The notes under the pieces are model-generated. The model was not told the origin of the DNA, did not search any database, and worked only from the letters and a program-made list of their open reading frames with translations. 64,000 nt of DNA. It comes from an uncultured Chloroflexia bacterium (GTDB lineage: Bacteria; Chloroflexota; Anaerolineae; B4-G1; SLSP01). How positions within the stretch are numbered: position 1 is the first letter of the stretch; every line of letters starts with the position of its first letter. The position numbers and the translations under genes were made by a program. The stretch is from assembly GCA_963700595.1 (NCBI GenBank), contig CAVOYE010000011.1, forward strand, positions 218,336 to 282,335. The letters run 5' to 3'. Shown here in pieces: positions 32,856-40,153 of this stretch.

Positions 32856-33364
32856 ATGTCAGAACCATTCTTGGCAGAGATTAGAATTGTTGGGTTTAAT
32901 TTTGCTCCACGCGGTTGGGCATTTTGTGATGGTCAAATTCTACCTATAAATCAAAACCAGTCGCTGTATTCTTTGTTAGGGACAACCTACGGGGGGGATG
33001 GTCGCACCACCTTTGCCCTTCCTGATTTGCGCAGCAGAGTGCCTATACATACGGGGGGCAGCAATGGTACTTCTCATACTTTGGGATCGAAAGCTGGTCA
33101 GGAAACTCACACGCTGACGGTGTCCGAGATACCTCAGCACACCCACAGCATCCAGGCGTCTTCAGATGGTTCGGATTCCCAGGATCCCACAGATAGAGTA
33201 TTGGCACAATCAGGGCAGGTTTATCGTAATACAGCCTCTTTAGTGGACATGGTGAGTGGATCGATGACCAATACGGGTGGTGGGCAGGTGCATGAAACAT
33301 GCAGCCCTTCCTGGCTCTCAACTTCTGTATCGCATTGACGGGTTTATTCCCGTCGAGAAATTAA
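32856..33364 (+). CDS. Phage tail collar domain (MdpB-like) protein 1 (frameshift near 33295)
   Basis: EPFLAEIR..GFNFAPRGWAFCDGQ...YGGDGRTTFALPDLR; alternative frame gives ...MQPFLALNFCIALTGLFPSRN*. Confidence 0.9.
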
Positions 33365-33374
33365 GGAGGAAGTG

Positions 33375-33893
33375 ATGTCTGAACCATTTGTAGGTGAGAT
33401 TAGAATGTTCGCTGGTAACTTTGCACCCCGAGGTTGGGCGTTTTGTGATGGGCAGCTATTGGCTGTTTCGCAAAATGATGCCTTGTTCTCGCTTTTTGGC
33501 ACGATCTATGGAGGTGATGGACGCACAACCTTTGGCCTTCCTGATTTGCGAGGGCGGGTTCCCGTCCATGCCGGGCAGGGTCCAGGACTTTCAGAGCGGC
33601 GGTTAGGCTCTAAGGGTGGTGCTGAAAATGTGACAGTCACTGTAAATCAACTTGCCTCTCATACGCATTTAGTGAAAGGAACAAATGAGCCTGCTGACGC
33701 CACCGTTCCTTCCAGCAGGCTTCCCGCTGGATCCAGCACCGTTAGTTTATACGCCAGCACTGCGCCTACGGTAGATTTCAACGCAGCAGCGGTACCTGCA
33801 GTAGGTGGTAGCCAATCGCACGACAATCTGATGCCTTTTTTGTGCATTAATTTTATTGTGGCTTTGATTGGCATATACCCATCGAGACAATAG
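33375..33893 (+). CDS. Phage tail collar domain (MdpB-like) protein 2
   Basis: Same collar motif; ends NLMPFLCINFIVALIGIYPSRQ. Confidence 0.9.
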   Translation: MSEPFVGEIRMFAGNFAPRGWAFCDGQLLAVSQNDALFSLFGTIYGGDGRTTFGLPDLRGRVPVHAGQGPGLSERRLGSKGGAENVTVTVNQLASHTHLVKGTNEPADATVPSSRLPAGSSTVSLYASTAPTVDFNAAAVPAVGGSQSHDNLMPFLCINFIVALIGIYPSRQ

Positions 33894-33903
33894 GAGAAAA
33901 ATC

Positions 33904-34422
33904 ATGTCTGAACCATTTATCGCAGAAGTCAGGATATTTGCCGGTAACTTTGCTCCCCGTGGATGGGCATTTTGTGATGGGCAACTGCTGCCAATTGCGC
34001 AGAATACAGCGCTGTTTTCACTGATTGGCACCACTTATGGCGGTGACGGACGTACTACTACCGCATTACCTAACTTGCAGGGTCGCGCTCCGATGCATCC
34101 GGGTCAAGGTCCAGGACTGACAGCCCGGAGACTGGGTGAAAAAGGTGGAGTTGAGACCGTCGCACTTTCTGAAGCACAAATGCCCAATCATCTCCATACT
34201 TTACGCGCAACGGTGAGTCGGGGTAGCGCCAGTCAACCGCAGGGCAATGCCTTTAACCGCTCTACCGGTGATACGGCATACCTTGCCCCGACGAACTTAA
34301 CTGGAATGTCTACAACGATGGCAGCAAATACCGGGGGAGGTCAACCCCACAACAATCTGCAGCCATTCCTTACGCTCAACTTTATCATCGCGCTGGTAGG
34401 GTTATATCCTTCGAGAAACTAA
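33904..34422 (+). CDS. Phage tail collar domain (MdpB-like) protein 3
   Basis: Same collar motif; ends NLQPFLTLNFIIALVGLYPSRN. Confidence 0.9.
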   Translation: MSEPFIAEVRIFAGNFAPRGWAFCDGQLLPIAQNTALFSLIGTTYGGDGRTTTALPNLQGRAPMHPGQGPGLTARRLGEKGGVETVALSEAQMPNHLHTLRATVSRGSASQPQGNAFNRSTGDTAYLAPTNLTGMSTTMAANTGGGQPHNNLQPFLTLNFIIALVGLYPSRN

Positions 34423-36331: not shown

Positions 36332-36459
36332 AGCAATAGCAATCAATTTAACTATAAACAATTCAGCATAGAAAGCACTAGACATTTATCGGTATGATAG
36401 GTATAGTGGGCATAATTAGCTACCCAGACCTGTGGAAACCAGAGGAGGAAGGGAGTACC

Positions 36460-36783
36460 ATGAAAAGAAGAGCATTTTTAAAACTGACAGCATTGGCTTC
36501 GGCAGCGTTATTTCTACAAAATGCAGGATGGAATGTAACTGCTGGCATGCCCACGCAAAATCAGCATAAAGGTATGGTGTTCAAGGGAAATTCACTTGGA
36601 GAAATATATTGTTCGCGAGATGAGGGAGAAACCTGGCAGGCGCACACCCGCTTGAGTCCTGGGACCTCTATCGCAGGAATTCACGGTGACCCATCAGGGC
36701 GGCTTTATGCTCAAGTGGTATATTCAGGCTATAGCTTTGAGTTGATGTTAACCGATGATGGGCTTAACTGGATGTCGGTTTGA
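36460..36783 (+). CDS. Tat-exported small protein with Asp-box motifs
   Basis: MKRRAFLK twin-arginine signal; SRDEGETW and TDDGLNW. Confidence 0.65.
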   Translation: MKRRAFLKLTALASAALFLQNAGWNVTAGMPTQNQHKGMVFKGNSLGEIYCSRDEGETWQAHTRLSPGTSIAGIHGDPSGRLYAQVVYSGYSFELMLTDDGLNWMSV

Positions 36784-36832: not shown

Positions 36833-39800
36833 GTGAGGTTAAAGATGAAAACAAGAAAACAGCGTTACATGTGGGCTTTGCTCGGAAACGTGAGTCTATT
36901 CGCAGTTATCGGACTGATATTAATGGTTGCAGTTGGACCGTCATCTGCAGATCCGATACTCACTGCCAGCAAATCCGACATAATATTTATTGACAGCTAT
37001 TCAAACAACGTGGCGAATGCAGGTGACACGATCCGCTACACCACAATTGTCACCAACAGCGGTTCGACGGGAGCCGTAAACATGGCTTTCGTGGATACCA
37101 TCGATCCTGATACCACTTTGGTTGCCGGTTCGGTTCGCACAACCCCCATTGCCCGGCATGATACCTATACTTCAATCGGCAATGTGGGGATCAGTGTTCC
37201 AGCGGGCAGTGGTGTGCTGGCTAACGATAACGATCCTGATGGCAGCACGCCAGTTCTCACCATCGTCAGCTTTGACGCCACCAGTGCCAATGGTGGTAGT
37301 GTTGCTGTGGCAGCTGATGGCAGCTTTACCTACCTACCAACCCCGGGTTTTGAGGGATCTGATTCATATACATATACGATCCAGGACAGCGATGGCAATA
37401 CTGATCCTGCAACCGTCGTTATCAGCGTCAACGATGTGATCTGGTTTATTGATAACAGCGCCGGGGGTGGGGGAGATGGACGTCTTGGTACTCCGTTTGA
37501 CAGTTTGGCAGCGTATGATGCAACTGCCGCGGATGAATCTGGGGATGTTATCTTCCTTTACGAATCAGGCAGCGGTGACTACAGCGGTGGTATCATACTG
37601 CTCAACGACCAGAAACTCATTGGGGAAGGAGCGACAGCCACAATTGCTTCGATTGCCGGTATCACGCTGCCCGCGTTCAGCAACGCTTTACCCGCCACAT
37701 CAGGCAGCAAACCCACGATTATCAACGCTGCCGGTAATGGCATCACCTTGGCAGCAAATAACACCATTCGCGGTCTTAATGTCGGAAACACTACCGCCAC
37801 CGGTATTGCGGGCAGCTCTGTCGGTACATTGACGCTGAGTGATGTTTCAATTACCGGTAGCGGTAAGGGCGTTGATATCAACGGCGGAGCTATGGCGGCT
37901 ACTTTCGACAGCATAGCTGTTTCTTCTTCCACAACTGGTGGGGTATCCCTGCAAAGTGTTTCCGGGACGACAAATATCAACGCTTTGAGTATCACCAACA
38001 GCAGCAGTACAGGTTTGCTGGCTTTATCCGCCGGCACGATAAACATCAACGGCGCCGGCAATATCATCAACACCACCAATGGTACAGCCGTTAACCTCAC
38101 GAACACGAGCATCGGCAGCAGCGGGATAACCTTTCTGAGCGTTTCAGCCAGCGGGACTGACACCGGTATCACACTCAACAACACCGGCATCGGCGACTTC
38201 ACAATTACCGGTAACGGGACAACCGACGGCAGTGGTGGTATCCTGACAAACTTGAACGATCACGGCATCGAACTCATTAACGTGCAGGATGTCTTCATCA
38301 GCAATATGAATTTGAATAACGCGGCTTTGACCCAGGAGGTTGAACCCAACACGGTGACCTGTACGAACCTGTCAAATGGCAGTAACCTGGGCTGTAACGC
38401 TCCGGTGCACATGGTTAATGCGAACAATATAAACCTGACCAACCTGACCATCAACGGCAGTGTGCAGCATGGGGTCAACGGAAACAACGTTAATGGTCTG
38501 ACCATCAGCAATACCGACGTGACCAACATTGGCAATCAAAACAAAGAAAACGGGATGCATTTCATCAATCTGCTGGGTACGGTCAGTTTCAGCAATGTCA
38601 GTGTCATCGGCTCCAATACACGTAACGTGTTGATTGAGAACAACACCGGTATAGCCAATGTCACAGTCACCGGTTCCACCTTCAACACTGCGGGTAGTGA
38701 AGTCGGTCTCGATTTTCTCGGACTGGGCACGGCGAACATCACCTTCAGCGTCAGCGGCAGCAGCTTTTACCGCAACAATTCTGTGCAGCTCAAAGCGCTG
38801 GCTTCGGGCAGCAGCACAATGAATGCCACCATTAACGGCAGCAACACGTTTGAAGGTAACCCAGCTGTGACAGGCAATTCGGGTGTCGATCTGGACGCGG
38901 TTGATGGCGCAACCCTTACCTTTAACGTTTCAGGTAATACTTTCCAACCCTTCAGAAGTCAGGTGATCAACGTTTTCACCTCAGGTGGCGGTACTGCTTC
39001 GGGGCGGGTAAACGGGAACACGATCACAGGATCAGCCTTCGGCGCCGGTGTTCGTGCCGTAGCCGAAGTGACCGATGTCAACGGCACAAACCCCGGCATC
39101 ACGATTGAGATTAATAACAACAGCATCAGTGGTGTAGCGGGTGGCGGGTTAGCCGGTATCCATATCGAAGCCCGTGATGGCAGCAATGGCTTGACAGGCG
39201 TGGCTAACGTTGATGCCACGGTTATCAATAATAACGTCACCACCAATGGCGCTGACGCGGCGATACAGGTATATCTCGAGGATCTGAACGGCACCGCTAA
39301 CCGCGTCTGCATTAACGCCACAGGTAATGCTACGCAAGCCGTAGGGGGTGCTTTTGGTGAGACCGATTTCTTCTTCGGAAATAATGCCGCTTCAGGGACA
39401 AATTCGGGGATTGCTCAGATGCAGGGTTATTCTGGCAGTGTCAGCAATACCTGGTTTACGGTAAATAGCAATACCAGTACAACCACCATACCATTTGCCG
39501 ATAGTCTGGGTCCAATTGGTAGCGGTACTTGTGCCTTGGTTGCATCCGTTCTTCCTGCAGCTAACACCCCAATGATTACCCGGGATGTGCCGGTTTTACA
39601 TCTAACCCAGAATATATACTCAGATCTGGAGGGAGTTATCGATAACGCATTGATGGTACAGCGTGACCGCTTTGAAAAACAAGTGTCCGCGGTTGATCGT
39701 TCTGATCTGGTTGCCTTCAATACGCAAGTAAAGGCTAAAGTCAGAACATGGGCTGACTGGTTTGTCTCTGCTTTCAGGGTCTCGCCGGTTTTAGCCAGCG

Positions 39801-40153
39801 GCGAAACCATCAACCTGGACCTCGGCGACCTTGACCCCGGACAACAGGTGACCATCACGTTTGATGTAACGGTGGACAGTACAATTCCTGAAACTGCGAC
39901 GCAGGTGTGCAACCAGGGAACGTTTACCGGTGACAATGTTGCCAATTTATTGACTGATGATCCAGACCCGTCCGGTCCTGCAGATCCCACGTGCACCATT
40001 GCTTCGTCGACCACTGCGGTCACATTCACGACTTTGCAGGCGGATCAAGGCACTACTGGCTTACTCGCTGCTGTGATAGGCTTGGCTGGTAGTGCTGTAT
40101 TGGTTTACGCTTTATCCAAACGGGGGATTAAGAAATCAGATCTTTCTCGATAA
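36833..40153 (+). CDS. Large surface protein: split DUF11 + Ig-like (Big_9/cadherin-like) + parallel beta-helix + C-terminal anchor
   Basis: Signal peptide; GDTIRYTTIVTNSG; GVLANDNDPDG...DGSFTYLPTPGFEGSDSYTYTI; N/G/T/S-rich beta-helix repeats; LGDLDPGQQVTITFDVTV; TAVTF + TM + KRGIKK. Confidence 0.8.
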   Translation: MRLKMKTRKQRYMWALLGNVSLFAVIGLILMVAVGPSSADPILTASKSDIIFIDSYSNNVANAGDTIRYTTIVTNSGSTGAVNMAFVDTIDPDTTLVAGSVRTTPIARHDTYTSIGNVGISVPAGSGVLANDNDPDGSTPVLTIVSFDATSANGGSVAVAADGSFTYLPTPGFEGSDSYTYTIQDSDGNTDPATVVISVNDVIWFIDNSAGGGGDGRLGTPFDSLAAYDATAADESGDVIFLYESGSGDYSGGIILLNDQKLIGEGATATIASIAGITLPAFSNALPATSGSKPTIINAAGNGITLAANNTIRGLNVGNTTATGIAGSSVGTLTLSDVSITGSGKGVDINGGAMAATFDSIAVSSSTTGGVSLQSVSGTTNINALSITNSSSTGLLALSAGTININGAGNIINTTNGTAVNLTNTSIGSSGITFLSVSASGTDTGITLNNTGIGDFTITGNGTTDGSGGILTNLNDHGIELINVQDVFISNMNLNNAALTQEVEPNTVTCTNLSNGSNLGCNAPVHMVNANNINLTNLTINGSVQHGVNGNNVNGLTISNTDVTNIGNQNKENGMHFINLLGTVSFSNVSVIGSNTRNVLIENNTGIANVTVTGSTFNTAGSEVGLDFLGLGTANITFSVSGSSFYRNNSVQLKALASGSSTMNATINGSNTFEGNPAVTGNSGVDLDAVDGATLTFNVSGNTFQPFRSQVINVFTSGGGTASGRVNGNTITGSAFGAGVRAVAEVTDVNGTNPGITIEINNNSISGVAGGGLAGIHIEARDGSNGLTGVANVDATVINNNVTTNGADAAIQVYLEDLNGTANRVCINATGNATQAVGGAFGETDFFFGNNAASGTNSGIAQMQGYSGSVSNTWFTVNSNTSTTTIPFADSLGPIGSGTCALVASVLPAANTPMITRDVPVLHLTQNIYSDLEGVIDNALMVQRDRFEKQVSAVDRSDLVAFNTQVKAKVRTWADWFVSAFRVSPVLASGETINLDLGDLDPGQQVTITFDVTVDSTIPETATQVCNQGTFTGDNVANLLTDDPDPSGPADPTCTIASSTTAVTFTTLQADQGTTGLLAAVIGLAGSAVLVYALSKRGIKKSDLSR

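Follow-up and report, generated by a model that had tools for sequence, protein, structure and literature searches.

A DUF11/CLIPPER-type domain split around a beta-helix insert in a predicted surface protein of Chloroflexota, with relatives that carry the two halves on separate genes

Introduction

The DUF11 domain has been renamed CLIPPER and described as a CnaA-like domain, its crystal structure 9IFR containing a K715–N806 isopeptide bond together with D748, and DUF7927 has been described in the same account as a new isopeptide sister family of DUF11, with the exemplar triad K125/D161/N225 (PMC12617251). In CnaA-like domains the bond links the first and penultimate strands, and inserts are tolerated in both isopeptide folds, as in RrgA, Spy0125 and GBS104 (3TXA, split 137–211 + 587–717, K188/D597/N692) (PMC12617251). 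The DNA analysed here, referred to below as the window, is a stretch of 64,000 nucleotides from an uncultured Chloroflexia bacterium (assembly GCA_963700595.1, contig CAVOYE010000011.1, positions 218,336 to 282,335 of the forward strand), and the subject is one gene within it, whose product carries a DUF11/CLIPPER-type domain in two halves that lie ~885 residues apart.

The gene is a single open reading frame (ORF) at window positions 36833..40153 (+), which encodes 1106 amino acids (aa) from a GTG start or 1102 aa from an ATG at 36845, with the stop codon at 40151–40153. An identical database cluster representative, P0002, is 1102 aa long and fits the ATG start. Residues are numbered here from the GTG, as in an initial annotation of this DNA, and K47, D88 and N1027 match on that count.

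Two segments as halves of one domain

Residues 40–103 (36950..37141, +; the N-half) and residues 989–1058 (39797..40006, +; the C-half) each match part of a domain profile and each have four predicted strands. Residues 57–103 match TIGR01451 (DUF11 repeat) at 30.8 bits with a cut-off of 24, and so pass the family threshold. When scanned alone, residues 36–110 match only positions 7–52 of the 114 in Pfam DUF11 (PF01345; E 4.2e-5, 24.3 bits against a cut-off of 24.6), and residues 990–1055 match only positions ~71–129 of the 132 in DUF7927 (PF25549; E 2.4e-5, 25.1 bits against a cut-off of 31).

Unsplit relatives were obtained from a representative-library search, the output of which was mostly giant Big_9 repeat proteins and the useful part of which was a set with tandem unsplit repeats (P0141, P0170, P0173, P0174, P0195, P0232, P0237 and P0239). 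Matches to the N-half and the C-half alternate N-C-N-C along these proteins, and the gap from N-half to C-half is 3–30 residues (median 14; 114/114 adjacent pairs). The two that were scanned against Pfam, P0170 and P0239, score as DUF11 at 522 and 291 bits, and a contiguous copy matching both halves lies at residues 1425–1574 of P0012. The spacing from K to D is 41 residues in the window protein, which equals the median over 109 unsplit repeats; that from D to N is 939 residues against a median of 65 in the same repeats, and the insertion therefore amounts to ~874 residues. For the DUF7927 exemplar, the table of PMC12617251 gives spacings of 36 (K to D) and 64 (D to N). The insertion point follows the fourth strand and a short GSV motif, where unsplit repeats carry a short hairpin.

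Of the 120 listed homologs, 60 show the same succession of N-half, Big_9, helix and C-half, with the identical P0002 left out. One half or both are present at 58 of 83 genomic loci with relatives, and 35 of the loci have the domain split within one chain, which corresponds to 33 distinct contigs as two were fetched twice; at 13 loci an N-half is present and no C-half was detected. Records with this architecture are labelled Chloroflexota, Acidobacteriota, Planctomycetota, Bacteroidota and Gammaproteobacteria, and the best genomic relative (60% identity) carries the label Candidatus Promineifilaceae.

The split of one domain around an insert is confirmed. By profile, triad and predicted topology the window protein belongs to the DUF11/CLIPPER superfamily, and that its two halves form one domain is held with high confidence.

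Isopeptide triad and adjacent cysteines

K47 (codon 36971–36973) and D88 (37094–37096), both in the N-half, and N1027 (39911–39913), in the C-half beside a covarying cysteine pair, occupy the isopeptide positions of the family, all on the + strand. Triad residues were counted in 94 alignment rows (93 homologs and the query) in which an N-half stands ahead of the helix; 61 of these have a C-half and 33 have none. Positions 47/88/1027 are K/D/N in 51 rows, N/E/T in 5 rows (a Dyadobacter clade), L/L/T in 1 row, and Q/D/N, L/D/N, A/D/N and N/D/N in 1 row each. The rows in which no C-half was found comprise 15 with K/D, mostly ORFs that stop at the end of the helix on short contigs, and 18 with Q, L or K and a non-acidic residue (one L/E).

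N is present in 51/51 rows having both K and a C-half, and six of the ten C-half rows without K are also without N (five N/E/T, one L/L/T). K is missing from 17/33 rows without a C-half, 14 of which have Q and a hydrophobic residue at the K and D positions. Unsplit repeats are K/D/N in 105/113 cases, with all three residues lost in 4/113 and the Lys position unaligned in 4. Across the aligned homologs, these counts show the triad residues to be retained jointly or lost jointly.

The cysteines at 1026 and 1054 are both present in 32/61 rows and both absent in 29/61, with no mixed row. C1026–C1054 is read as a putative disulfide between the last two strands.

Structure predictions

The full-length protein was modelled with AlphaFold2 on a 30-row alignment (mean predicted local distance difference test score (pLDDT) 80, predicted template modelling score (pTM) 0.69). 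The N-half block has pLDDT 84–92 (residues 41–100) with strands at 43–53, 66–75, 81–89 and 94–96, and the C-half block has pLDDT 78–91 (residues 991–1060) with strands at 992–1000, 1005–1014, 1024–1032 and 1053–1057. The eight predicted strands (4 + 4) place K47 in the first and N1027 in the penultimate, as in the CnaA-like topology of a sandwich with 7–9 strands.

Residues 38–106 and 986–1060 were also folded as two chains, which gave an interaction prediction score from aligned errors (ipSAE) of 0.49, 0.51 and 0.49, with 0.00 as the best of 3 controls. In the benchmark for this assay the mark was reached by 116/157 solved complexes and 2/215 mismatched pairs, and reached at or below 0.60 by only 18/157 solved complexes plus both passing mismatches. 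The runs share at least 95% of contacts, with partner pLDDT of at least 69. The pLDDT of the N-half was 72–73 with its true partner versus 36–38 with unrelated partners, and that of the C-half 69–70 versus 41. In an AlphaFold2 model of P0056, a Saprospiraceae-type protein that ends right after the helix and has no C-half, the N-half region (10–87) has pLDDT <50 and zero strands, and the remainder folds with a mean pLDDT of 78.6, on an alignment of 14 rows only. In the models, each half is predicted to be folded only beside the other.

The initial annotation had proposed a DUF11 domain split around a passenger of ~885 aa, which is borne out by the half-profile matches, the unsplit relatives and the conserved order. 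Its suggestion of K47, D88 and N1027 as the isopeptide residues is supported by the profile halves, the unsplit relatives, the joint retention and loss, the AlphaFold2 strands and a weakly supported two-chain fold. On its question of whether the two segments would model as one sandwich, both halves are modelled with confidence, with 4 + 4 strands and K47 and N1027 in the first and penultimate; for the pairing of the two halves the two-chain fold gave weak support (ipSAE 0.49). The label CnaB-like that it gave to DUF11 is corrected to CnaA-like following PMC12617251.

Insert and return tether

The insert opens with a Big_9/cadherin-like Ig domain at residues 104–200 (37142..37432, +; PF17963, E 9.2e-17, match at residues 104–197). 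Its main body is a right-handed parallel beta-helix at residues 201–866 (37433..39430, +), modelled by AlphaFold2 as a ladder of strands with pLDDT mostly >90. Model residues 383–866 align with polysaccharide-active parallel beta-helices, among them the AlgE4 mannuronan epimerase 2pyg_B (Z 30.8, root-mean-square deviation 3.0, 325 aligned), the Sf6 tailspike 2vbk (Z 29.4) and the RbmB lyase 9ozl_C (Z 28.7); PL6 alginate lyases are also among the structural matches. On this model we take the insert to be a putative glycan-binding or glycan-cutting module, a shared fold by itself showing no function.

The ends of the helix rod are distant from one another, and the chain must therefore return along the helix. 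Residues 867–988 (39431..39796, +), termed here the return tether, are unconserved and include two predicted helices; in the AlphaFold2 model pLDDT is <50 over residues 866–988 except around C900. No homolog other than the identical P0002 matches residues 901–985. The distance from C900 to the C-half is 55–128 aa in 30/30 aligned homologs, in which the helix is 439–832 aa long. C826 (39308–39310), in the last helix rungs, and C900 (39530–39532), at the start of the tether, are invariant in the same 30/30 homologs and probably form a disulfide that would pin the start of the tether.

Relatives with the halves on two genes

Two-gene loci were reached through homologs that have no C-half and carry Q and a hydrophobic residue at positions 47 and 88. 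At 12/22 Bacteroidota loci a downstream gene on the same strand encodes a signal peptide and then directly a C-half; a profile search picked up eleven of these stalk genes (E 5e-19 to 5.5e-7), and the twelfth was recognised by visual inspection. Eight of the remaining Bacteroidota loci end too early to tell, and two are without such a gene. Bacteroidota loci with a tip and a C-half stalk are L010, L011, L014, L016–L019, L021–L023, L026, L029, L062 and L068, and their tips have Q and a hydrophobic residue at the K and D positions (T in L062). The stalk of L014, the only one scanned whole, has SdrD_B, 11 Calx-beta, GEVED, HYR and a type IX secretion system (T9SS) sorting domain after its C-half; the tip proteins inspected end without a T9SS-type sorting signal.

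A second set of loci gave more two-gene cases, in L003 (Chromatiaceae), L040 (Gammaproteobacteria), L053, L062, L068 and L096. K/D/N is kept in the pairs L003:2812–8205, L040:5316–8709 and L053:7464–12090, where the tip has K and D, the stalk has N and the Cys pair, and the stalk C-half sits right after the protein's own signal peptide. In the L003 stalk the C-half is followed by six SpaA_4 domains. The cluster of this protein comprises 29 sequences, of which the 15 listed are 771–773 aa long and lie on different contigs, some as long as 818 kb; the boundary between the two genes is therefore seen repeatedly and is no assembly slip. Searching the N-terminus of this stalk against a large protein database returned only its own cluster. 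At L096:3687–12364, a protein of 2694 aa with the N-half at its N-terminus is followed by one of 172 aa that consists only of a signal peptide, a C-half, an LPQTG motif and a membrane helix, and which looks like a sortase-anchored docking stub. N is retained in 14 two-gene pairs that are without K/D.

These pairs support, at the level of sequence, the view that the halves are complementing modules, and the K/D/N pairs of L003, L040 and L053 suggest natural intermolecular isopeptide ligation. A more general proposal, made tentatively and with chances put somewhat short of even, is that of a natural split-and-ligate module of which the window protein is the fused cis form. The tip form would consist of signal peptide, N-half, Big_9, beta-helix and stop, and the stalk or anchor form of a signal peptide with the C-half at the mature N-terminus; tip and stalk would join by 4 + 4-strand complementation, isopeptide-linked in L003, L040 and L053 and non-covalent in Bacteroidota. 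Non-covalent pairing in Bacteroidota could carry a tip that has no T9SS signal alongside a stalk that has one.

Several Bacteroidota loci also hold genes of an intermediate kind that end in an N-half and Big_9, which suggests alternative tips for one stalk and hitch-hiking on the T9SS; nothing relevant was found in the literature on T9SS hitch-hiking. At L031, L038 and L095 the halves are likewise in different ORFs, and these loci were excluded from the two-gene count as apparently frameshifted or unclear assemblies.

In the window protein and its relatives, the residues just before the C-half (970–989; 39740–39800) were also compared. An A-x-A stands just ahead of the SGET that begins the C-half in 9/15 cis homologs shown, the last three residues before SGET being AYA, ALA or AHA in 7 of those 9; they are VLA in the window protein. 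The A-x-A resembles a signal-peptidase site, and the stalks of two-gene loci carry a true hydrophobic signal peptide there. The motif could be left over from a gene fusion, or it could mark a processing site.

Proposed mechanism and alternatives

The mechanism that we favour, with moderate confidence, is intramolecular closure of the split domain with a K47–N1027 isopeptide staple, by which the insert would be presented on a covalently closed loop. Given that the halves form one domain, closure within one molecule is likely; given such closure, the isopeptide bond would probably form. In this mechanism ~875 residues (Big_9, a beta-helix like those of polysaccharide enzymes, and a floppy tether) would interrupt a loop of one CnaA-like Ig domain. 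After export the four-stranded N-half would wait, unfolded or incomplete, until the C-half emerges, whereupon both halves would close as one beta-sandwich inside the same molecule. K47 in the first strand and N1027 in the penultimate would then form the bond autocatalytically, with D88 as the acid, and the C1026–C1054 disulfide would adjoin it. The outcome would be a covalently closed loop of ~980 residues with the mature N-terminus stapled beside the membrane anchor. The short path from helix through Big_9 and N-half to the anchor could bear load, because the other route would be the slack tether, and the insert would stay on if the tether were cut; a mechanical role of the staple may be envisaged on these grounds.

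Several points weigh against this mechanism. The Pfam scores of the N-half and the C-half are both under the gathering cut-offs; each half can cover only half a profile. The six joint losses of K and N stem from about two lineages, so that the triad counts are phylogenetically non-independent, and the four C-half rows with Q/D/N, L/D/N, A/D/N and N/D/N retain N without K. The AlphaFold2 model was read as secondary structure and pLDDT, so that triad proximity and sandwich packing are putative, and the two-chain fold gave a verdict of weak support on an alignment built in this analysis. Sequence searches of the PDB with each half, with an unsplit tandem relative and with an eight-repeat profile returned chance-level matches only, none of them to 9IFR, and Foldseek and VIA-align searches with the full model returned almost only beta-helix matches, which are uninformative on the small domain. 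Finally, adjacent termini are typical of domains that bud from split domains (PMC12077191, as far as the part consulted describes them); the ends of the beta-helix are far apart, an uncommon arrangement among inserted domains, and closure relies on an unconserved tether.

The alternative that survives best, although we regard it as unlikely, is that one sandwich forms within the molecule with no isopeptide bond, K47, D88 and N1027 being buried hydrogen-bonding residues and closure being non-covalent with help from C1026–C1054. The bond is indeed absent from some DUF11 domains according to PMC12617251, and the Dyadobacter clade (N/E/T) and the 14 two-gene pairs without K/D evidently work bond-free; as N is retained in those pairs despite the loss of K, it must have a role besides the bond. 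Set against this are the retention of K, D and N together in 51/61 C-half rows and 105/113 unsplit repeats, the occurrence of complete joint losses, and a spacing that matches families in which the bond has been solved or predicted.

A lower probability still is assigned to pairing between molecules, which would give covalent dimers or head-to-tail chains on the cell surface. The far-apart helix ends and the unconserved tether would suit it, the two-chain fold is blind to cis versus trans, and pairing in trans is evidently possible, since relatives pair their halves across two polypeptides. However, the tether is at least 55 aa long in 30/30 homologs and is on the whole longer where the helix is longer (r 0.56, with no correction for relatedness), as expected if it reaches back; the protein's own C-half would be present at the highest local concentration and lies ~17 residues from its own membrane helix; and the genome has a single copy of the gene. 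The polymerisation between molecules that the initial annotation had offered as an option finds no support for the window protein, and its likeness to a natural split tag reappears in the two-gene relatives, whose halves are on separate genes.

A very improbable reading is that the two segments never pair, being unrelated leftovers or small domains in their own right that are alike for historical reasons only. In its favour, both Pfam matches fall below the gathering cut-offs and 13 loci have an N-half with the C-half undetected; against it, the two halves show strong conservation and an unchanged order in 60/120 listed homologs, triad residues on different halves are kept or lost jointly, and each half is modelled as folded only with the other present (two-chain fold; P0056).

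Termini and genomic surroundings

Closure within one molecule, as favoured above, would take place in a protein with a signal peptide-like N-terminus at residues 1–39 (36833..36949, +), where a basic stretch and a hydrophobic helix (12–33) are followed by SSA before D40. The region was read directly from the sequence, and AlphaFold2 models helix 12–33 with low pLDDT; cleavage would be expected near A39. The C-terminal anchor at residues 1059–1106 (40007..40150, +), read in the same way, has a hydrophobic helix at residues ~1076–1094 (40058–40114, +) and then a basic tail. The LPXTG motif is absent from the C-terminal 60 residues, and sorting-domain models gave no match there; two sortase genes are present elsewhere in the genome. 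A secreted, membrane-anchored surface protein is the best explanation of the gene product.

The tail at residues 1059–1106 (40007–40150) consists of a short TAV-type motif, the hydrophobic helix and the basic end, and is like the tails of P0014–P0016, P0018 and P0040, with no match to known sorting models; it is a candidate for an undescribed sorting signal. For two homologs split in cis, P0105 and P0109, the listing includes a sortase domain (PF04203) within the same chain, and the C-terminus of P0105 looks sortase-like.

Upstream, three consecutive genes at window positions 32856–34422 all code for proteins with a phage tail collar domain (PF07484, E ~1e-28 to 1e-30). Next come an unassigned 351-aa ORF, genes for a GNAT acetyltransferase and a DUF6916 protein and, just upstream of the adhesin gene, a small ORF (36394–36783) whose product looks secreted. 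A scan for promoters and terminators was at shuffle level, with 6 promoter-like sites versus 5.8 and 7 terminator-like sites versus 4.0.

Comparison with known systems

Like CLIPPER and DUF7927 domains as they are described, the domain of the window protein is a CnaA-like Ig domain of a surface protein with Lys in the first strand, Asp as the acid and Asn in the penultimate strand. The K–D and D–N spacings are comparable once the insert is discounted, and a disulfide would likewise lie beside the bond, a feature reported to be common in Chloroflexota in the part of PMC12617251 consulted. The CLIPPER domains described there are contiguous, ~100–130 aa long and usually tandem stalk repeats, whereas ~875 residues lie between D88 and N1027 in the window protein.

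The resemblance to the pilus adhesins RrgA, Spy0125 and GBS104 is that an adhesive module protrudes from a loop in an isopeptide domain, with the bond residues straddling the insert and stapling its base. As far as they are described, these adhesins carry vWFA, thioester or CnaB domains as inserts, each a few hundred residues long and with its termini close together; the window insert, unlike these, is Big_9 plus a beta-helix of ~660 aa with distant ends and, across homologs, a return tether of 55–128 aa. They are also sortase-assembled pilins, whereas the window protein has no LPXTG motif and would be anchored by a membrane helix.

In the split domains of RTX adhesins such as AhLap, FrhA (PDB 9y9w) and their relatives, an Ig-like domain is similarly interrupted and a ligand-binding module projects from the adhesin axis (PMC12077191), and FrhA is among the Foldseek matches of the full model. 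Those adhesins are type 1 secreted and Ca-binding, their inserts have adjacent termini, and the portion of PMC12077191 consulted mentions no isopeptide triad. The window protein has an N-terminal signal peptide, a C-terminal membrane helix and no RTX repeats, a Pfam scan of the protein at E up to 1 having returned no RTX or related family, and RTX split domains are an analogue only. The window protein works like pilus tip adhesins and RTX split domains and is a member of neither.

The K/D/N two-gene relatives have their nearest analogues elsewhere. SpyTag/SpyCatcher is an engineered, man-made split of a CnaB domain from which one strand has been split off, and the HK97 capsid lattice is held by Lys-Asn cross-links; in both, as would be the case in these relatives, a spontaneous isopeptide bond joins polypeptides. 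The two-gene relatives differ in being a natural 4 + 4-strand split of a CnaA-like domain, with one part on a tip protein and the other on a stalk protein. They make the spontaneous isopeptide joining of separate surface proteins in nature a question that can be tested at the bench, and, if it occurs, the pairs would be new orthogonal protein-ligation pairs and the natural counterpart of SpyTag/SpyCatcher.

If the bond forms in the window protein, the insert would far exceed in size any other reported for an isopeptide domain, that of GBS104 being ~375 residues in the table of PMC12617251. The widespread CLIPPER family would gain its first example of such an insert, with the unusual geometry of a distant-ended rod closed by a floppy tether. 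The split architecture further offers a simple rule for locating the functional end of fibrillar adhesins that are still uncharacterised in environmental bacteria. In the literature searched, neither a split CLIPPER domain nor a beta-helix insert was found described; the one relevant paper that came up, PMC12617251, names only the inserts of RrgA, Spy0125 and GBS104 in the part consulted, and its supplements may list more. An insert in an isopeptide domain is an established principle, and what is new here is the host family, the type of insert and the long return tether.

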